From Eledone cirrhosa (lineage: Eukaryota), in contig OZ024760.1 of NCBI GenBank assembly GCA_964016885.1, positions 2,232,001 to 2,296,000 on the forward strand: a DNA stretch of 64,000 nucleotides. Reading direction: 5' to 3'. The notes beneath the pieces were generated by a model. That model made no database searches and had not been told where the DNA came from. It saw only the letters and a list, made by a program, of their open reading frames with translations. The position numbers were made by a program, and so were the translations under genes. Shown here one piece after another: positions 3,686 to 61,892 of this stretch. How positions within the stretch are numbered: position 1 is the first letter of the stretch; every line of letters begins with the position of its first letter.

Positions 3686-5717
3686 TTGTTACCTAGCATC
3701 CCTCCTTGCCAATATATTGTTACCTAGCTTCCCTCCTTACAAAGTATACTTGTTTCCTAGCTTCCCTCCTTGCAAATATATTGTTACCTAGCTTCCCTCC
3801 TTACAAAGTATACTTGTTTCCTAGCTTCCCTCCTTGCCAATATATTGTTACCTAGCTTCCCTCCTTACAAAGTATACTTGTTTCCTAGCTTCCCTCCTTG
3901 CCAATATATTGTTACCTAGCTTCCCTCCTTACAAAGTATACTTGTTTCCTAGCTTCCCTCCTTGCCAATATATTGTTACCTAGCTTCCCTCCTTACAAAG
4001 TATACTTGTTTCCTAGCTTCCCTCCTTGCCAATATATTGTTACCTAGCTTCCCTCCTTACAAAGTATACTTGTTTCCTAGCTTCCCTCCTTGCCAATATA
4101 TTGTTACCTAGCTTCCCTCCTTACAAAGTATACTTGTTTCCTAGTTTCCCTCCTTACAAAGTATACTTGTTTCCTAGCTTCCCTTCTTACAAAGTATACT
4201 TGTTTCCTAGCTTCCCTCCTTGCCAATATACTTGTTTCCTAGCTTCCCTCCTTACAAAGTATACTTGTTTCCTAGTTTCCCTCCTTACAAAGTATACTTG
4301 TTTCCTAGCTTCCCTCCTTACAAAGTATACTTGTTTCCTAGCTTCCCTCCTTGCCAATATACTTGTTTCCTAGCTTCCCTCCTTACAAAGTATACTTGTT
4401 TCCTAGCTGCCCTCCTTACAAAGTATACTTGTTTCCTAGCTTCCCTCCTTACAAAGTATACTTGTTTCCTAGCTTCCCTCCTTGCCAATATACTTGTTAC
4501 CTAGCTTCCTTCCTTACAAAGTATACTTGTTTCCTAGCTTCCCTCCTTACAAAGTATACTTGTTTCCTAGCTTCCCTCCTTGCCAATATACTTGTTTCCT
4601 AGCTTCCCTCCTTACAAAGTATACTTATTTCCTAGCTTCCCTCCTTACAAAGTATACTTGTTTCCTAGCTTCCCTTCTTACAAAGTATACTTGTTACCTA
4701 GCTTCCTCCTTACAAAGTATACTTGTTTCCTAGCTTCCCTCCTTACAAAGTATACTTGTTTCCTAGCTTCCCTCCTTACAAAGTATACTTGTTTCCTAGC
4801 TTCCCTCCTTGCCAATATACTTGTTTCCTAGCTTCCCTCCTTACAAAGTATACTTATTTCCTAGCTTCCCTCCTTACAAAGTATACTTGTTTCCTAGCTT
4901 CCCTTCTTACAAAGTATACTTGTTACCTAGCTTCCCTCCTTACAAAGTATACTTGTTTCCTAGCTTCCCTCCTTACAAAGTATACTTGTTTCCTAGCTTC
5001 CCTCCTTGCCAATATACTTGTTACCTAGCTTCCCTCCTTACAAAGTATACTTGTTTCCTAGCTTCCCTCCTTACAAAGTATACTTGTTTCCTAGCTTCCC
5101 TCCTTGCCAATATACTTGTTTCCTAGCTTCCCTCCTTACAAAGTATACTTGTTTCCTAGCTTCCCTCCTTATAAAGTATACTTGTTTCCTAGCTTCCCTC
5201 CTTGCCAATATACTTGTTACCTAGCTTCCCTCCTTACAAAGTATACTTGTTTCCTAGCTTCCCTCCTTGCCAATATACTTGTTTCCTAGCTTCCCTCCTT
5301 ACAAAGTATACTTGTTTCCTAGCTTCCCTCCTTGCCAATATACTTGTTTCCTAGCTTCCCTCCTTACAAAGTATACTTGTTACCTAGCTTCCCTCCTTAC
5401 AAAGTATACTTGTTTCCTAGCTTCCCTCCTTACAAAGTATACTTGTTTCCTAGCTTCCCTCCTTACAAAGTATACTTGTTTTCTAGCTTCCCTCCTTACA
5501 AAGTATACTTGTTTCCTAGCTTCCCTCCTTACAAAGTATACTTGTTTCCTAGCTTCCCTCCTTATGAAGTATACTTGTTTCCTAGCTTCCCTCCTTACAA
5601 AGTATACTTGTTTCCTAGCTTCCCTCCTTACAAAGTATAATTGTTTCCTAGCTTCCCTCCTTACAAAGTATACTTGTTACCCAGCTTCCCTCCTTACAAA
5701 GTATACTTGTTACCTAG
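3686..5717. repeat. 31-33-bp minisatellite (about 62 units) derived from the adjacent LINE ORF2
   Basis: Unit cttgtttcctagcttccctccttacaaagtata; the reverse strand reads RREARKQVY. A 64-bp dimer on the left, then 98-bp and longer higher-order periods. Confidence 0.92.
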
Positions 5718-43570: not shown

Positions 43571-43923
43571 ATGGAGGCACATGGCTTAGTGGTTAGAGCA
43601 TTGGCCTTGCAATCGAAAGGTTGTGAGTTCAATTCTTCAATTCTCAGACCAGGTGATGTGTTGTTTCCTTGAGCAAGACACTTTATTTCACATTGCTCTA
43701 GTTTACTCAGCTGTAGAAATGAGATGATAGGGACTGGGGTCCCTATCATTCCACTGCAAAGTGGTCGTGGAGGTGCCACGGAAAAAAAGCACCCAGCACT
43801 CACTGTAAATGAGGTTGGTGTTAGGAAGGGCATCCAGCTGTAGAAATCAAACCAGAATCAGTTCCTATCCCACCCTTGCAAGCAGGGAAAAGCGGACGTA
43901 AAATGATGATGATGATGATGATG
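43571..43923 (+). mobile_element. tRNA-derived SINE (family 1)
   Basis: Same consensus. Confidence 0.92.
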
Positions 43924-45483: not shown

Positions 45484-45830
45484 ATGGAGGCACATGGCTT
45501 AGTGGTTAGAGCAATGGTCTTGCAATCGAAAGGTTGTAAGTTCAATTCTCAGACCGGGTGATGTGTTGTTTCCTTGAGCAAGGCACTTTATTTCACATTA
45601 CTCCAGTTTACTCAGCTGTAGAAATGAGATGATAGGGACTGGGGTCCCTATCATTCCACTGTAAAGTGGTCATGGAGGTGCCACAGCAAAAAAGCACCCA
45701 GCACTCACTGTAAATGAGGTTGGTGTTAGGAAGGGCATCCAGCTGTAGAAATCAAGCCAGCATCAGTTCCCGTCCCACCCTTGCAAGCAGGGAAAAGTGG
45801 ACGTAAAATGAAATGATGATGAATGATGAT
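45484..45830 (+). mobile_element. tRNA-derived SINE (family 1)
   Basis: Same consensus. Confidence 0.92.
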
Positions 45831-45835
45831 ATAAT

Positions 45836-46281
45836 TATAATGAAATGACTGGAGGCTGGACTTGTGTAAATCCTTGAAAGGTTTATTATACTATGATCAT
45901 TTCAATAACCGGGTTCCGTATGAATCCGGTGATATCATCAGGTATTCAAAATATAATAAGTGAATGTAATAGGTAAAATTCATGGGGCTGAAAATCAAAG
46001 ACCCGAGGACGACCGCCATCCAGCATCTTCTACCTTTGCCGGTCGCCCTCGAGTGACGTGGCTAAAGCTTACAGTGTGCTACTACCGGTCAAATAAAGGA
46101 AAACAGAAAGGGATAGGAACATAAGTCAGCGTTAATATCATGCCACAAGAAAAAAGAAAGAAAGAGAGAATACCTGATGATATCACCGGATTCATACGGA
46201 ACCCGGTCATTGAAATGATCATAGTATAATAAACCTTTCAAGGATTTACACAAGTCCAGCCTCCAGTCATTTCATTACAAT
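45836..46281. mobile_element. Fold-back hammerhead element (family C)
   Basis: About 110-bp inverted arms with a 220-bp spacer. atac-CTGATGA(46174)-...accgg...ccggt...-GAAA(46212)-tgatca-TA^gtat. Confidence 0.82.
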
Positions 46282-46428
46282 ATTTAACTCCGTACTAGCA
46301 CCAACCACTACAAAAACAAAGACGGTTGAACTGCTTTACGTTGAGTACTCTCCATATTATTACATTGAGATTGACCATACGGAATTGACCAGTTCTATCC
46401 AGTGGTGATCCTCAAACCTGAATATATA

Positions 46429-46790
46429 TATAGTTATGTAATAAACAACATAAGACAATTATTCCATTTACCAGTGGTTTCTTAAAAGCAAAAAATTTTG
46501 CTTTCAATCCTCAGAATGAAAAAATCCTGGTCTGTTTATTGAATTTGGATTTTAAAAACAAAAAAAAAAAAACTTTTTTTTTTATTTTTAAAATCCAAAT
46601 TCAATAAACAGACCAGGATTTTTTCATTCTGAGGATTGAAAGCAAAATTTTTTGCTTTTAAGAAACCACTGGTAAATGGAATAATTGCCTTATGTTGTTT
46701 ATTACATAACTATATAACTCTGTTACCTACATAGAGCACTCTTTTTTCCTGGACTTTTCCGATGGAATTACTTCATTCACACACATATAT
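46429..46790. mobile_element. Fold-back hammerhead element (family D)
   Basis: About 140-bp inverted arms meeting at an A/T tract near 46572. catt-CTGAGGA(46629)-ttgaaagcaaaa/ttttgctttt-GAAA(46662)-ccactgg-TA^aatg. Confidence 0.85.
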
Positions 46791-48295: not shown

Positions 48296-48845
48296 CCCTT
48301 TAGCCTTTACTTTACTCTATATTTACGTTTATATTTTCACGGTTGTCCCACATAATATCGAATCTATGAGATTTTGATACTATTTATTTTGAGAACAATA
48401 CCTTAACATCAGTATGGGTGGCTGGTTACTGCCAGGTTAACTCTTTAGCATTTATATTACTCTATATTTACTATTGTATTTTCACGGTAAACACTTTATT
48501 TCACATAATATCAAATCTATGAGATTTTGATATTATTTATTTTGAGAATAATACTTTAACATTGGTATAAATGACTGGTTACAGCCAGTTTGAACAGAAA
48601 GAGGTGATAAAATTCTGGCTGGATATGGCCGGTTTAACCCTTTAGCATTTACATTACTCTATATATACTATTGTATTTTTGTGGTAAAGGCTTTATCTCA
48701 CATAATATCGAATCTACGAGATTTTGATGTTATTTATTTTGAGAACAATACCTTAACATAAGTATGAGCAGCCGGTTATGGCCGGTATTAACAGAAAGAG
48801 GTGAGGGACTTCTGGCTGGATATGGTTGGTTTAAATGGTAAAGGG
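48296..48845. mobile_element. Concatenated piggyBac-like MITE (three left ends)
   Basis: TTAACCCTTTAGC recurs at 48292, about 48437 and about 48634. Ends AAAGGG|TTAA. Confidence 0.82.
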
Positions 48846-49010
48846 TTAAACATCATCTCTGCTATTACATCTAATATTCTACCAAGTCCTACTCAATTGC
48901 TAGTGTATATTATAATAGTAGATTTTGTAATTAATTAACCATTCTTACTATCTTAAACATCATCTCTGCTATTACATCTAATATTCTACCAAGTCCTACT
49001 CAATTGCTAG

Positions 49011-49181
49011 TGTTATGAAGTTCATCTATCCTCAATATAACTTTGTTTTATTGCATATCTTTCTTTTCTTACAAATATTATTGTTATATTTCTTCAAGAC
49101 TAATTACTGTTTTTATATTCTAGATATTGAATAAAAGCTTGTAATTGGAGCTTTAGTTTTGCAATATTAGAACGCACAACA
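49011..49181 (+). repeat. 5' LTR
   Basis: TGTTATG...CACAACA, contains AATAAA at about 49130, identical to the 3' LTR. Confidence 0.97.
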
Positions 49182-49269
49182 ATTTTGTTCAATATCTTAT
49201 ACTATTCTTATCTTTTGCTTTTGCGTTTGTTGACATATTCCCTGGAGAAAAATGGCACCAAACTTTTCC

Positions 49270-52200
49270 CTTTGAAAGCAACGAAGCACTAATCACCCTG
49301 GATACTCAATTCTTAGCCCCCAGTCGTATACTCTATGCTAGACATCAACTCCTAACATGCCGCCAAAAGCAAGAAGAAACCGTCCAAGAGTTTATTAAAA
49401 GACTCAACCTTTTAGTGGAAAAATGTAACTGTAAAGCCATCACAGCTAAAGACCACAGAGATATGTTGATCCTGGATTCACTAGTAGCAGACGCTATACG
49501 AGCACGTCTCCTAGAGCTGGACGATACTCAAGCAAACCTAAAAGACTGCATAGCAATGGCAAATGCAATAGAACTATCCAGTGATTTTACTAAATCATTC
49601 AACCTAGACGTCTCTCTGAATTAGCAGCTACAAAATCAAAACAACCTCTTCTGAAATACTTGAAAAATGCTAATTCTCAAAGTGAATTTAAATGCTTTTT
49701 TTGTGGACTTTCTAGGCATCCTAGAAATAAATGCCCAGCTAGAAAAGACATATGCTATTCTTGTGGGAAGATCGGCCACTGGCAATCAGTCTGTAAATCT
49801 GACTGCCAAAGCAGTAAGCAAGCAGCCTCACTTATATGTTCATTAAATACCGGCAAACAATCTAAAGCTATTCTCTGCCCGATAACTATAAAAGACACCA
49901 CACTAAAGGCCTTAATCGATCCTGGTTCCACAGATTCGTTTATACGTCATAGCATAGCAACTGAATTAAACTTGAGCGTAAAACAAGAAAAACGGGCAAT
50001 CACACTAGCCGACAATAAAATATTAAAGACGACTGGTACTACATCCATACCAATATGTATCTACAGCGAGGAATACTCTGTGAACCTAATCACTGCAAAA
50101 GGTCTTGTCGCAGACGTCATTATCGGAATGGATGTCCTCACCCAGCATAGCTCTATTATTCTCCACCTTGGCGGTGCCCGGCCTCCCATGAAATTTTCAA
50201 ATCAACTATGCTGTACCTTTCCGACAATAGAAGTTAATCCGCCTCTTGTCTTCCACGATTTAGCCGAGACAAATATCAAGCCGATTGCCACTAAGGGACG
50301 TTTCATTAACAAGAGAGACGACAATTTTATTAAGTCCGAAATAACTCGCCTCCTAGAAGCCGGTATCATTGAGGAATCAATTTCACCTTGGTGAGCTCAG
50401 TGCTTCATAGTACACGGAAAGAAACCTCGACTCGTGGTAGACTACTCCCAGACAATTAATAAGTATACACAATTGGATGCCTATCCATCCCCCGACATTG
50501 AGGATGTTGTTAACAAAGTGGCACAGGATAAATATTTTTCAGAATTCGACCTCAAATCAGTGTATCACCAAGTACCTTTAAGAAAAATCGACAAACCTCT
50601 AACGGCATTTCAGGCTAATCACAAACTCTACCAATTCTGCTGCTTACCCTTCGGCGTGACTAACGCTGTACCTGTTTTTCAGAGAATTATGGATCAAGTT
50701 ATAGAGAAATATAACTTACTCAAAACCTATGCCTATATTGACAACGTCATAGTCACGGGAAATACCAAAGCTGAACATGATAGAAATGTGGAAGCATTCT
50801 TAAACGCCGTGAAGACAGAAAACCTAACTCTTAACTCGGATAAGAGTAAAATCTGCCAAACGAGTATATCTATACTAGGTTATAACATTCAGAACGGAGT
50901 AAAGAAACCCGATAAGGAACGCATCGAAACCCTACTAGACTACCCAATCCCAACAAACAAACAACAACTGAAACGATTCCTTGGATTCCTAGCCTATAAT
51001 GCTAGGTGGATTGCCGATTACTCGAAGAAAATCCAACCACTATTACAAGCTGACTCGTTCCCGCTGAATAAAGTAGCTACAGATGTAATACAAGCCATGA
51101 AAGCAGATATCTCTAATGCCGCTCTTAGCATTCCTCTTAAAACTGGCCACGCATTGGTAATAGAAACAGATGCGTCTGGCGATGCAATCGGAGCTATACT
51201 TTCTCAAAACGAACGGCCCGTGGCCTTCCTGTCGAGAACACTTACACCGTCCGAGAAAAGACAATCAACTGTGGAGCGAGAAGCTATGGCTATTATTGAA
51301 GCTGTACGGAGATGGTCACAATACGTGAAGTGTTTTCATACGATTATACGGACTGACCAAAAATCAGTAGCCTTCATTTTCTCGAGTAATAAATCACGAA
51401 TCAAAAATGATAAAATATCTCGCTGGCGTTTAGAACTATCAGAGCATCAATTTGACATTGACTACAAACCCGGCTACCTCAACACCCAAGCCGATTGTCT
51501 TTCAAGAATCGCTGCAGCTATATCGCCACCCTGTGATTTAAAAGTACTCCACGACCAACTAACACACCCAGGAGTAACTAGATTTTACGATTATATCCGA
51601 CGCCATAACCTGCCCTTTTCCGTAGACAAAATCCGCGACGTCGTCAAAAACTGCGTATCATGTTTGGAGTGCAAGCCAAAATTCTTCAAGCCTCCATCTG
51701 CTAAACTCATTAAGTCAACAAGGCCGTTCGAACGTCTGTCAATCGATATCGTTGGACCAAAACCAAAATCTTCAAAAGCAGGAAACATATACTTATTGAC
51801 TGCAGTAGACGAATTCAGCAGATTCCCTTTTGCTTTCGGTATCCGTGACATCACCTCAAACACTGTCATTAACTGTCTCAAACAAATCTTCTCAATATTC
51901 GGAGCTCCCTCATTCATACACTCTGATCGAGGAACTCAGTTTCTCTCCAAAGAATTCAATCATTTCTGCTTGTCCAATGGTATATCCCACACGCGCACTT
52001 CGCCATACCATCCACAGGGAAATGGCCAAAACGAGCGCTAAGCGCTACAACGGAGTCCTCTGGAAAGGAATTCAATGCATAATTAACTCGCGCAAACTTA
52101 AAGAAACTAAGTGGGAAGATATCATACCAGAAGTTCTCGCCTCGCAACGATCACTTCTCTGTACAGCGACTAATGAGACACCCCATAACCATATATTTAG

Positions 52201-52650
52201 ATTCGATTGAAAGGGTTCCTTAGGATTTTCCCTACCAGATTGACTTAGAGTTGGAAACGACGCCTATATTAGAAACTTTATTCGCACAAAGAACGACCCA
52301 TTAGTGAATAAAGTTATTATCGAACAGATGGTGAATGCTAATTTCACGGTTGTCAGATATCAAAATGGAAGATCTAGTACAGTCTCAATCTAGATCAGCA
52401 GACCTCTCCCCTGGCCCAATTAATTGTCAAAATAATGACAATCAATCCATGCAAGAAAACAGTTCGATTAGCAGTCCTGCTGATATGCAGAGACCACTTA
52501 ACATCGACCACAGTAACGATCTACTCTTAGATGATTGATTTAAATCCCATGGCAAATAGCACTAGCATCCTATCGCAAGTTCCTGCTGACCCCGTGAGAC
52601 GAAGCAATCGTATACGCGTAGCCCCCAAGCGCTATATTGAAGAACAATAA
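49270..52650 (+). pseudogene. Disrupted gag-pol of the Gypsy element
   Basis: Gag (ARHQLLTCRQ), two CCHC knuckles, protease ALIDPGS, RT (LPFG, YIDN), RNase H (ETDAS), integrase (HxxxxHPG, IDIVGP, VDEFSRF, HSDRGTQF, YHPQGNGQNER) and C-terminal RRSNRIRVAPKRY. Frameshift near 49615, in-frame TGA at 50392, 7-bp duplication near 52036, further stops near 52208 and 52241. Confidence 0.95.
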
Positions 52651-52663
52651 AATCGGCGAAGAA

Positions 52664-52834
52664 TGTTATGAAGTTCATCTATCCTCAATATAACTTTGTT
52701 TTATTGCATATCTTTCTTTTCTTACAAATATTATTGTTATATTTCTTCAAGACTAATTACTGTTTTTATATTCTAGATATTGAATAAAAGCTTGTAATTG
52801 GAGCTTTAGTTTTGCAATATTAGAACGCACAACA
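52664..52834 (+). repeat. 3' LTR
   Basis: Identical to 49011-49181 and followed by the TSD GCTAG. Confidence 0.97.
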
Positions 52835-55800
52835 GCTAGTGTATATTATAATAGTAGATTTTGTAATTAATCTACCATTCTTACTATCTTAAACACCATC
52901 TCTGCTATTACATCTAATATTCTACCAAGTCCTACTCAATTGCTAGTGTATATTATAATAGTAGATTTTGTAATTAATCTACCATTCTTACTATCTTAAA
53001 CACCATCTCTGCTATTACATCTAATATTCTACCAAGTCCTACTCAATTGCTAGTGTATATTATAATAGTAGATTTTGTAATTAATCTACCATTCTTACTA
53101 TCTTAAACACCATCTCTGCTATTACATCTAATATTCTACCAAGTCCTACTCAATTGCTAGTGTATATTATAATAGTAGATTTTGTAATTAGTCTACCATT
53201 CTTACTATCTTAAACACCATCTCTGCTATTACATCTAATATTCTACCAAGTCCTACTCAATTGCTAGTGTATATTATAATAGTAGATTTTGTAATTAATC
53301 TACCATTCTTACTATCTTAAACACCATCTCTGCTATTACATCTAATATTCTACCAAGTCCTACTCAATTGCTAGTGTATATTATAATAGTAGATTTTGTA
53401 ATTAATCTACCATTCTTACTATCTTAAACACCATCTCTGCTATTACATCTAATATTCTACCAAGTCCTACTCAATTGCTAGTGTATATTATAATAGTAGA
53501 TTTTGTAATTAATCTACCATTCTTACTATCTTAAACACCATCTCTGCTATTACATCTAATATTCTACCAAGTCCTACTCAATTGCTAGTGTATATTATAA
53601 TAGTAGATTTTGTAATTAATCTACCATTCTTACTATCTTAAACACCATCTCTGCTATTACATCTAATATTCTACCAAGTCCTACTCAATTGCTAGTGTAT
53701 ATTATAATAGTAGATTTTGTAATTAATCTACCATTCTTACTATCTTAAACACCATCTCTGCTATTACATCTAATATTCTACCAAGTCCTACTCAATTGCT
53801 AGTGTATATTATAATAGTAGATTTTGTAATTAATCTACCATTCTTACTATCTTAAACACCATCTCTGCTATTACATCTAATATTCTACCAAGTCCTACTC
53901 AATTGCTAGTGTATATTATAATAGTAGATTTTGTAATTAATCTACCATTCTTACTATCTTAAACACCATCTCTGCTATTACATCTAATATTCTACCAAGT
54001 CCTACTCAATTGCTAGTGTATATTATAATAGTAGATTTTGTAATTAATCTACCATTCTTACTATCTTAAACACCATCTCCGCTATTACATCTAATATTCT
54101 ACCAAGTCCTACTCAATTGCTAGTGTATATTATAATAGTAGATTTTGTAATTAATCTACCATTCTTACTATCTTAAACACCATCTCTGCTATTACATCTA
54201 ATATTCTACCAAGTCCTACTCAATTGCTAGTGTATATTATAATAGTAGATTTTGTAATTAATCTACCATTCTTACTATCTTAAACACCATCTCCGCTATT
54301 ACATCTAATATTCTACCAAGTCCTACTCAATTGCTAGTGTATATTATAATAGTAGATTTTGTAATTAATCTACCATTCTTACTATCTTAAACACCATCTC
54401 TGCTATTACATCTAATATTCTACCAAGTCCTACTCAATTGCTAGTGTATATTATAATAGTAGATTTTGTAATTAATCTACCATTCTTACTATCTTAAACA
54501 CCATCTCTGCTATTACATCTAATATTCTACCAAGTCCTACTCAATTGCTAGTGTATATTATAATAGTAGATTTTGTAATTAGTCTACCATTCTTACTATC
54601 TTAAACATCATCTCTGCTATTACATCTAATATTCTACCAAGTCCTACTCAATTGCTAGTGTCTGTTATAATAGTAGATTTTGTAATTAATTAACTATTCT
54701 TACTATCTTAAACATCATCTCTGCTATTACATCTAATATTCTACCAAGTCCTACTCAATTGCTAGAGTATATTATAATAGTAGATTTTTATAATTAATTA
54801 ACCATTCTTAATATGTTAAACATCATCTCTGCTATTAGATCTAATATTCTACCAAGTCCTACTCAATTGCTAGTGTCTATTATAATAGTAGATTTTATAA
54901 TTAGTCTACCATTCTTACTATCTTAAACATCATCTCTGCTATTACATCTAATATTCTACCAAGTCCTACTCAATTGCTAGTGTATATTATAATAGTAGAT
55001 TTTGTAATTAATTAACCATTCTTACTATCTTAAACATCATCTCTGCTATTACACCTAATATTCTACCAAGTCCTACTCAATTGCTAGTGTATATTATAAT
55101 AGTAGATTTTGTAATTAATTAACCATTTTTACTATCTTAAACATCATCTCTGCTATTACATCTAATATTCTACCAAATCCTACTCAATTGCTAGTGTATA
55201 TTATAATAGTAGATTTTGTAATTAGTCTACCATTCTTACTATCTTAAACATCATCTCTGCTATTACATCTAATATTCTACCAAGTCCTACTCAATTGCTA
55301 GTGTATATTATAATAGTAGATTTTGTAATTAGTCTACCATTCTTCCTATCTTAAACATCATCTCTGCTATTACATCTAATATTCTACCAAGTCCTACTCA
55401 ATTGCTAGTGTCTGTTATAATAGTAGATTTTGTAATTAGTCTACCATTGTTCCTATCTTAAACATCACCTCTACCTTACCACTCCTTCATCTTAAAGAAC
55501 TTATATAATTTCCATCACAAAATCTTTAAATTGGTGGCATCTGGAACCTTTACTATTGTGAATCTATTCAGGTATTCACAAGTTGATAATCAGAACGGCA
55601 GCTTAAATATTGGTTTAGCTGTAGTTCAATACACTTATTGGCATTGTTCTGGCTCCGAATAAATGGAAAGCAGGCAGAAACAGCCTCTGTCAGAAACAAA
55701 GAAAACTCTTCTTTTGCAGAACTCAAAAGTTTGCATCTACACCCACCCACCCCGCACACACACACACACACACACATAACAAAGACACACACACACACAT

Positions 55801-58150: not shown

Positions 58151-58693
58151 TTGATATCACATGTTGATGCACCAGTCTGCAACTGGCAGATTTTAGCATC
58201 ACAAGAAGATGTATATATAATGTAATTAAATTTGAAGGGACACACACACACAGACACAGACACACACATATATATATATATATATATATGAATGACATAA
58301 ATACATACATATATATTGAGTGATGTAAATGCACAAAATAACATATCAAACTTTAACAGGAGACAATCTTGACAAGGAGCAAAACATTCCGAAACAATTG
58401 TCAATTGTCGTTGTTTTTTCAGCTACTGCTGGAACAAAAGGATGATGTTGTCATCTCTACCACGTGATATTTATGAGGCTGTTTACTTGTAAACAAACTG
58501 AATATTAATAACGTTATGATATTATTATATTATTAGTATTACACTAGGATAATTGCTGGCCTTGTGCCAAAAGTAGAAACAATTAATATTATTATTCACT
58601 CAAGAATACATTTAGGTATCCACCATGTTAAGAGTGAAAACAAATTTTTATATATATATATATAAATATATATATGTGTGTGTGTGTATATAT

Positions 58694-59033
58694 ATGGAGG
58701 CACATGGCTTAGTGGTTAGAGCAGTGGCCTTGCAATCGAAAGGTTGTGAGTTCAATTCTCAGACCGGGTGATGTGTTGTTTCCTTGAGCAAGACACTTTA
58801 TTTCACATTGCTCCAGTTTACTCAGCTGTAGAAATGAGATGATAGGGACTGGGGTCCCTATCATTCCACTGCAAAGTGGTCGTGGAGGCGCCACAGTAAA
58901 AAAGCACCCAGCACTCACTGTAAATGAGGTTGGTGTTAGGAAGGGCATCCAGCTGTAAAAATCAAGCCAGAATCAGTTCCCGTCCCACCCTTGCAAGCAG
59001 GGAAAAGCGGACATAAAATGATGATGATGATGA
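58694..59033 (+). mobile_element. tRNA-derived SINE (family 1)
   Basis: Same consensus. Confidence 0.92.
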
Positions 59034-61377: not shown

Positions 61378-61715
61378 TCATTTCATCATCATCATTTCAT
61401 TTTACGCCCTGCTTGCAAGGGTGGGACAGGAACTGATTCTGGCTTGATTTCTACAGCTGGATGCCCTTCCTAACACCAACCTCATTTACAGTGAGTGCTG
61501 GTTGCTTTTTTGCCGTGACACCTCCACGACCACTTTGCATTGGAATGATATGGACCCCAGTCCCTATCATCTCATTTCTACAGCTGAGTAAACTGGAGCA
61601 ATGTGAAATAAAGTGTCTTGCTCAAGGAAACAACACATCACCCGGTCTGAGAATTGAACTCACAACCTTTTGATTGCAAGGCCAATGCTCTAACCACTAA
61701 GCCATGTGCCTCCAT
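61378..61715 (-). mobile_element. tRNA-derived SINE (family 1)
   Basis: Same consensus. Abuts a related SINE with a different body at about 61040-61370. Partial copies also at 8237-8400, 26125-26396 and 32952-33122. Confidence 0.9.
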
Positions 61716-61892
61716 ATGTATATATATATAGTGTATAGTAATAATAATAAACGTGAAGACTAAAATCCAAAGAGGGCTCGATAAGGATAAATATATATCA
61801 AATATATAAGAACCCTAGAGCAAATATTTATTAAAAAAACAGATTAAAGTTTAAGCAAAGAATCGCTGCTTTCACCCTTTAATAAATATATA

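Follow-up and report, generated by a model that had tools for sequence, protein, structure and literature searches.

Structure of the element and its surroundings

The window, which is the whole stretch of DNA that was analysed, covers 64,000 nucleotides of Eledone cirrhosa (contig OZ024760.1, positions 2,232,001 to 2,296,000 of the forward strand). A Gypsy retrotransposon copy spans positions 49011-52834 of this window on the + strand and is, judging from its sequence, a young one; its two LTRs are identical at 171/171 positions. With LTRs of the TG...CA type, a short target-site duplication (TSD), and gag followed by protease, reverse transcriptase (RT), RNase H and integrase, it has the organization of a Ty3/gypsy LTR retrotransposon. 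Its features are as follows.

49006-49010, + strand: GCTAG, the 5' target-site duplication, lying within a tandem array of 107-bp units
49011-49181, + strand: 5' LTR, 171 bp, TG...CA, same sequence as the 3' LTR
49100-49123, + strand: putative 3' splice acceptor in the LTR, made of a CTAAT branch-like motif (49100-49104), a pyrimidine tract and TAG (49121-49123); recognized by sequence, its use suggested by chimeras in which host 5' splice sites are fused to this AG
49124-49136, + strand: predicted self-primer ATATTGAATAAAA, 13 nt, covering AATAAA, a perfect complement of the family site
49137-49151, + strand: predicted small hairpin directly 3' of the primer end, of weak predicted energy, with similar stems predicted for most relatives
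49183-49195, + strand: 13-nt site in the primer-binding position, with a private A>G at 49187 and no TGG, pairing with LTR 49124-49136
49196-49278, + strand: foreign insert of 83 nt, which reproduces the end of a host exon in antisense (donor match 98%, splice site at the joint)
49280-52630, + strand: gag-pol remnant, 5'-truncated, broken by stops and indels
52649-52663, + strand: purine-rich tract ahead of the 3' LTR
52664-52834, + strand: 3' LTR, identical to the 5' LTR
52835-52839, + strand: 3' target-site duplication GCTAG

The gag-pol remnant encodes a double CCHC motif, a protease, an RT with YIDN, an RNase H and an integrase, and no chromodomain. A gag fragment (49157-49621) gave a weak PNMA Pfam match (E 5e-4) that lies below the cut-off. 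The preliminary description had overlooked that this copy is rearranged. The foreign insert at 49196-49278 stands in place of the family leader and the 5' part of gag, and the rearrangement, as described below, adds evidence for self-priming and does not refute it.

The surroundings are rich in repeats. The 107-bp array comprises about 25 units, 98% alike, at 48840-49010 and 52835-55465, and the element was inserted at a unit boundary. Just upstream of this array lies a 197-bp two-unit repeat (48437-48834). Near-perfect inverted repeats occur at 45834-46281 (114 nt, 220 nt apart) and 46427-46716 (143 nt, 4 nt apart), and an interspersed repeat of about 300 nt has copies, 95-96% alike and in both orientations, at 43636-43887, 45484-45792, 58687-59002 and 61407-61722.

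The primer-binding position is complementary to the LTR

The site that follows the 5' LTR had been described as starting 1 nt after it and lacking TGG, and both points stand; the whole family is likewise devoid of a tRNA-type site. The sequence TTTTGTTCAATATCT occupies 49183-49197, 1 nt past the LTR end at 49181, and its reverse complement agrees with 49122-49136 at 14/15 positions, the remaining one being a G:U pair. When the 30 nt after the LTR were shuffled, 15 contiguous pairs were reached in 4/20000 cases. Folding of 49122-49200 gave z = -3.88, with 0/200 shuffles as low; longer windows gave z = -1.93 and -0.59.

We then searched the E. cirrhosa genome itself, which yielded 93 candidate LTR places; 40 were scored and 20 stretches were fetched. 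The usual junction among these 20 reads CA, one A, TTTTATTCAATAT and GA, followed by a normal leader and gag. The family site TTTTATTCAATAT is complementary at 13/13 positions to LTR 49124-49136. The intact relatives had been named as the place where a canonical TGG tRNA site might be found; none has one, and the siblings keep a perfect 13-nt LTR complement. The 15-nt match with its G:U pair is thus real in this copy, but does not hold as a family feature. Indeed, the G:U at 49187 is private to this copy, the siblings having A, and the last two bases, CT (49196-49197), do not belong to the family: the siblings have GA, and CT are the first bases of the insert. The coverage of AATAAA by the paired LTR segment is confirmed for 49124-49136.

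An exact-pattern search of the same genome showed which base follows the 13 nt: G in 19 places, C in 7 and A or T in none. One of the 19 G places is a second junction inside a chimera. All 7 C places read CT and correspond to six different foreign inserts, including that of the 49011-52834 copy. Several family copies also have internal deletions and inversions. A second family of the same genome, whose RT is about 48% identical, possesses a site of 12 nt that matches the LTR of that family. In this second family (L046:1622-1640 and other copies) the gag ATG directly follows the primer site, so that there is almost no leader.

Placement of the lineage

The element had been read as Mag-like, an assignment that its sequence does not support. 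Its RT-RNase H region is 25-26% identical to that of a Mag-like family of this genome, 29-32% to CsRN1-like families and 44-52% within its own animal-wide lineage; moreover, the Mag-like copies have TGG and the lineage has none. A quick maximum-likelihood tree of 47 RT-RNase H segments, which contains no chromovirus sequence and leaves out L055 as too short, separated the lineage (38 rows) from the CsRN1-like and Mag-like rows by a long branch (SH-aLRT 99), at a point where long branches meet. The Mag-like label of the comparison family was given on the basis of a motif and of how abundant the clades are in PMC6238403, rather than from a named reference, and the CsRN1-like label rests on PMC2582038. 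In the Mag-like family (L187-L201) an unusually long spacer of 8 nt separates the TGG from the end of the LTR.

Two other parts of the original reading, the double CCHC gag and the missing chromodomain, proved correct: a chromodomain was found in 0/9 proteins scanned at E<=0.01 and in none of the precomputed domains of 120 homologues. Ty3 RT scored 155 bits against 144 for a non-retrotransposon enzymatic polyprotein, and 286 against 239 by profile, which is only slightly above. YxDN was considered as a marker of the lineage and rejected, as 92/120 homologues have D.

The CsRN1 clade is characterized by a tRNA-Trp site TGGTGA, a CHCC gag and a 4-bp TSD (PMC2582038), none of which is found in this element. 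Cigr-1 has been described, in supplementary file 3 of PMC6238403, as a low-copy Gypsy clade present in Octopus bimaculoides beside CsRN1 and Mag. The two families described here are also low-copy and neither CsRN1-like nor Mag-like, and membership in Cigr-1 is a lead only, drawn from the clade description. Another lead for this lineage is presumably Saci-2 of Schistosoma. Its gag is reported as CCCH (PMC2582038), whereas this element has two CCHC.

Site and LTR covary across the lineage

A protein search returned 1112 relatives at E<=1e-60; those that carry a name belong to insects, a crustacean, a spider, a nematode and a ray. No relative was found in the viral contigs scanned, and the ESM Atlas gave generic RT-RNase H clusters only. 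From a metagenome scan 80 loci were kept, of which 54 had no detectable LTR pair and 26 had a flanking repeat; 23 of the latter were real LTR junctions and three were overlaps or other repeats. We used 13 of the 23, leaving 10 near-copies out of a final count of 15 junctions from 14 families. In 4/15 junctions the LTR end was set from the CA motif, as the 3' LTR was cut or diverged.

In 14/15 junctions, 11-17 contiguous Watson-Crick nucleotides pair with the element's own LTR at an offset of 1-2, and the 15th pairs at 15/16 positions with one mismatch. A TGG tRNA-type site is absent from all 15. Positions 2-13 are Watson-Crick paired in 13-15 of the 15 junctions, position 0 is unpaired in every one, and positions 4-13 show two to four pair types each. 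The mean pairing was 13.2 with the own LTR and 5.3 with the LTRs of other families. Only 2/210 cross-family pairs reached 11 nt, both of them between the two families of this genome, and internal control positions reached the observed pairing length in at most 1/137 in each case. As controls we used nine elements of this genome (six CsRN1-like and three Mag-like): all nine have TGG and pair over 5-6 nt. In one family a matched double change, G>T in the LTR and C>A in the site, was found in one of six aligned copies, as copying of the site from an LTR-derived primer would predict. The complementarity, for which a covariation test had been proposed, is thus maintained with compensatory changes across 14 families. 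Such pairing in 14/15 junctions, set against 5-6 nt in the tRNA-type controls, makes Tf1-like self-priming very likely throughout the lineage. Altogether, the self-priming signature, the absence of a chromodomain and the double CCHC gag of the preliminary description remain; its 15-nt primer and its Mag-like affiliation are not supported.

These data bear on two other explanations of the site. The primer might be a host tRNA half or fragment, the match with the LTR being incidental. Half-tRNA priming does exist in copia lineages (PMC6317226), and our scan of host tRNAs covered 16 Rfam hits only, mostly of Thr, Ala and Val types, with a longest pairing of 8 nt and with positive controls absent. 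However, the 14 families have different sites, each of which matches its own LTR only, and a host primer would reset the site at each cycle instead of tracking an LTR mutation such as the G>T/C>A double change; there is also no Rfam match at E<=1 within 48900-49400. We give this explanation practically no credence.

The second explanation is that the pairing hides the poly(A) signal of the 5' LTR, and that priming is due to an unknown host RNA or protein. Indeed, many families have AATAAA or a variant of it within the paired part of the LTR, and a downstream partner exists for the 5' LTR only. Yet in 14/15 junctions the first paired base stands 1 nt past the end of the LTR, which is where synthesis must start, with position 0 always unpaired; some families pair GTTAAA and have AATAAA further downstream (L102), and no TGG site follows. 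As the sole function of the pairing we find masking highly improbable, and it may be a second role. Small hairpins after the primer were predicted in most families, with energies of -1.9 to -13.8 kcal/mol and no shuffle control.

Chimeric copies carry antisense host exons

The insert at 49196-49278 matches a donor at G000:C2:26279235-26279320 at 98%. The donor sits in a repeat whose other copies match at 78-93%. On its other strand, it reads TATAAG then GTAAGT, which is a 5' splice site located exactly at the joint. The sequence of this copy shows a novel arrangement, a chimera in which an antisense host exon is joined to the primer site at a splice boundary. The inserts of L011, L014 and L073 likewise start exactly at a host 5' splice site. 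In the first family four of the six inserts could be traced at the junction, L017 and L074 being those that were not traced there. The second family was set as a prediction test: two of its three chimera inserts were traced (L070 was not, at the junction), both start at GT splice sites, and the inserts meet their LTR at its own AG, in an 11-nt register. Altogether, the 6/6 traced chimeras, drawn from two families, share one type of joint: the insert begins exactly at a host GT 5' splice site, read on the opposite strand, and abuts the AG of the LTR. As a background value, only 3% of CT dinucleotides have a GT 5' splice-site context in 1.9 million letters of own-genome loci. Two inserts, that of L014 and one of the second family, span exon-exon joints. 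In the L014 insert, two exons at least are fused at GT-AG boundaries across a distance of 124 kb. A metagenome copy (L097:175-260) has two LTR-end/primer-site junctions with about 40 foreign bases between them, like the L014 chimera.

On the LTR side, the 13-nt primer segment begins right after an acceptor-like AG, with CTAAT, a pyrimidine tract and TAG just ahead. The extra CT of this copy comes from the end of the host exon, and the family pairing covers 13 nt (49124-49136), not the 15 nt starting at 49122 that had been proposed for the primer. The CT extension, first considered as a map of the transcription start, was dropped once donor tracing had shown that CT is the exon-end AG, and 49122 is therefore at most a candidate transcription start. 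The TATA-like box reported upstream of 49122 is indeed present (TTATATTT from 49084, 31-38 nt upstream), but is weak evidence in an LTR of 75% AT.

The donor of this copy is followed by a solo LTR in the same sense, whose acceptor is 4650 nt further downstream. A same-sense family LTR lies near only one of the six traced donors, among 65 and 63 LTR cores listed in this assembly; the five other donors need lost or polymorphic insertions, or trans-splicing. A search of four contig sets of unrecorded kind for a joint between the donor exon and the solo LTR found none among the joints listed, a result that carries no reading on splicing.

The chimeras might have arisen after insertion, either by DNA rearrangement or by LINE retrocopying of an RNA spliced in antisense. 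The internal deletions and inversions of several copies are in keeping with such an origin. It is nevertheless very hard to sustain: the inserts are intronless and begin at 5' splice sites, the LTRs of this copy are identical and flanked by a 5-bp duplication, and the antisense strand of the normal leader reads TATC at the joint, not AG. The exon-exon joints found in copies bounded by two LTRs largely refute this scenario.

A model in which host exons extend the primer

Priming by an RNA segment of the element's own LTR is, in our opinion, highly probable for this Gypsy lineage, and with similar confidence we attribute the chimeric joints to splicing. Somewhat more cautiously, we consider that the spliced RNA was probably the primer itself. 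The explanation that we favour overall, and hold to be likely, combines these elements: a 13-base LTR RNA would act as self-primer, and a host exon spliced onto it would then be copied in antisense. In such a scheme the LTR segment 49124-49136 would fold onto the site 49183-49195, the element RNA would be cut after 49136, by RNase H if the process resembles that of Tf1, and minus-strand synthesis would start from the cut end at 49136. An RNase H domain is present in the element. If the element or a solo LTR lies in sense in a host intron, host exons could be spliced to the LTR acceptor, and the primer would grow at its 5' end. Plus-strand synthesis would then copy the whole primer, host exons included, giving an antisense exon, before jumping back to the minus strand of the element in U5, the primer site, gag or pol; the chimeric product would finally integrate with two LTRs and a 5-bp duplication. 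The return points seen in the chimeras are U5 (L014), the primer site (L017), gag (the 49011-52834 copy) and pol (L011).

Alternatively, self-priming could be of the plain Tf1 type, with a start at about 49122-49124, and spliced host-LTR RNAs could be co-packaged templates to which the plus-strand end, a 13-nt copy, annealed and was extended. Such a pathway yields the same chimera sequence, LTR elements are known to capture host RNAs by template switching (PMC5131818), and in 11/14 families AG and the 9 nt after it add up to 11 nt, as long as the primer of Tf1. However, every particle holds its own U3-R RNA, so that inverted U3 copies would be expected often, and 0/6 family inserts follow the element's own U3 over more than 4 nt. 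Moreover, none of the seven CT places is a normal copy that extends its pairing to CT, and co-packaging still requires self-priming. We regard co-packaging as unlikely and favour the extended primer.

A textbook acceptor is found in 3/14 families, with 11-13 nt after AG. The 11 other families have 9 nt after AG and their pairing runs 2-8 nt past AG, which fits a start-site primer. This small sample suggests that an 11-nt start-site primer is the common state and that the acceptor-bounded primer is a variant. No convincing donor site inside the element, or intron inside the LTR that extends the pairing, was found in the 14 families, the best case reaching 5 nt. A bolder proposal is that splicing makes the normal primer 5' end: intronic copies would borrow host promoters via the LTR acceptor, the spliced RNA would prime, possibly in trans and with solo LTRs as a source too, and antisense host exons would be present in a sizeable fraction of new insertions. 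We mention it as a tentative idea, towards which we lean less than away. When L090 and L091 are compared (around 4947-4970), a single base change in L090 is seen to bring the pairing from 13 to 19 nt, an indication that the primer of that family reaches upstream of AG.

Relation to known self-priming elements

To our knowledge, self-priming has been shown by experiment in fission yeast only, and it is usually tied to Tf1/sushi chromoviruses. In Tf1, the first 11 bases pair with the primer site and are cut off by RNase H to serve as primer (PMC7175516), and in about half of the Tf1 cDNA the 3' end is single-stranded and has the sequence of the primer (PMC11042837). Self-priming has been described for Tf1/sushi and Tcn1 elements and predicted for the plant copia lineage TAR (PMC6317226, PMC4600332, PMC2864245, PMC5006619, PMC6934838, PMC5341516, PMC5443660). 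The lineage studied here resembles Tf1/Tf2 of S. pombe, Tj1, Tf1/sushi and the Tcn1 clade in having no tRNA site and an LTR-adjacent site complementary to its own LTR (PMC7175516, PMC4600332, PMC11042837), and the copying of the primer sequence into the cDNA end, as we propose it, is a Tf1-type feature (PMC11042837). The primer is also of similar length, 11 nt in Tf1 and 11-17 nt here as predicted from sequence. In contrast to Tf1/sushi elements, this lineage has no chromodomain in nine of nine proteins scanned, and it extends across invertebrates, whereas chromoviruses are reported missing from molluscs and other protostomes (PMC2774666). Unlike in Tf1, the 5' boundary of the primer in this family is a splice acceptor apparently used by host exons.

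The plant copia TAR lineage (Houba, Osr-1), in which self-priming was predicted by an LTR-complementarity test (PMC6317226), shows that the mechanism is not confined to chromoviruses. It differs in belonging to another superfamily, and the available text of that report describes no splice-linked primer. LTR-mediated retroposition (PMC5131818) likewise places intronless host exons inside an LTR element, where they replace part of an ORF. Its model invokes two switches driven by microsimilarity, at any position, whereas the first joint of the present chimeras has a fixed place where the primer site ends, coincides exactly with a 5' splice site and leads into exons in antisense. Self-priming is not mentioned in the available part of PMC13524379. 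The literature covered, which excluded the original Tf1, Cigr-1 and Saci-2 papers and Repbase/GyDB, contained no report of self-priming in this lineage or of splice-linked primers.

A compact animal Gypsy lineage thus carries a self-priming signature with strong covariation, and elements primed in this way would escape silencing by tRNA 3' fragments. The chimeric copies may be seen as a fossil record of primer cargo, that is, genomic evidence that the LTR RNA segment is used. They point to an antisense capture of host exons, a possible source of antisense or small RNAs directed at host genes; if the primer is indeed made by splicing, host genes would be captured by way of the primer. For any LTR family devoid of a tRNA site, the sequence after the primer site in rearranged copies offers a cheap test. 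Finally, L011/L084 (G000:C3:193058800-193065750) is a tandem of chimeric pol-only copies with common LTRs, each holding the same 545-nt antisense insert; this arrangement resembles the tandem arrays described for Tf1/Tf2.
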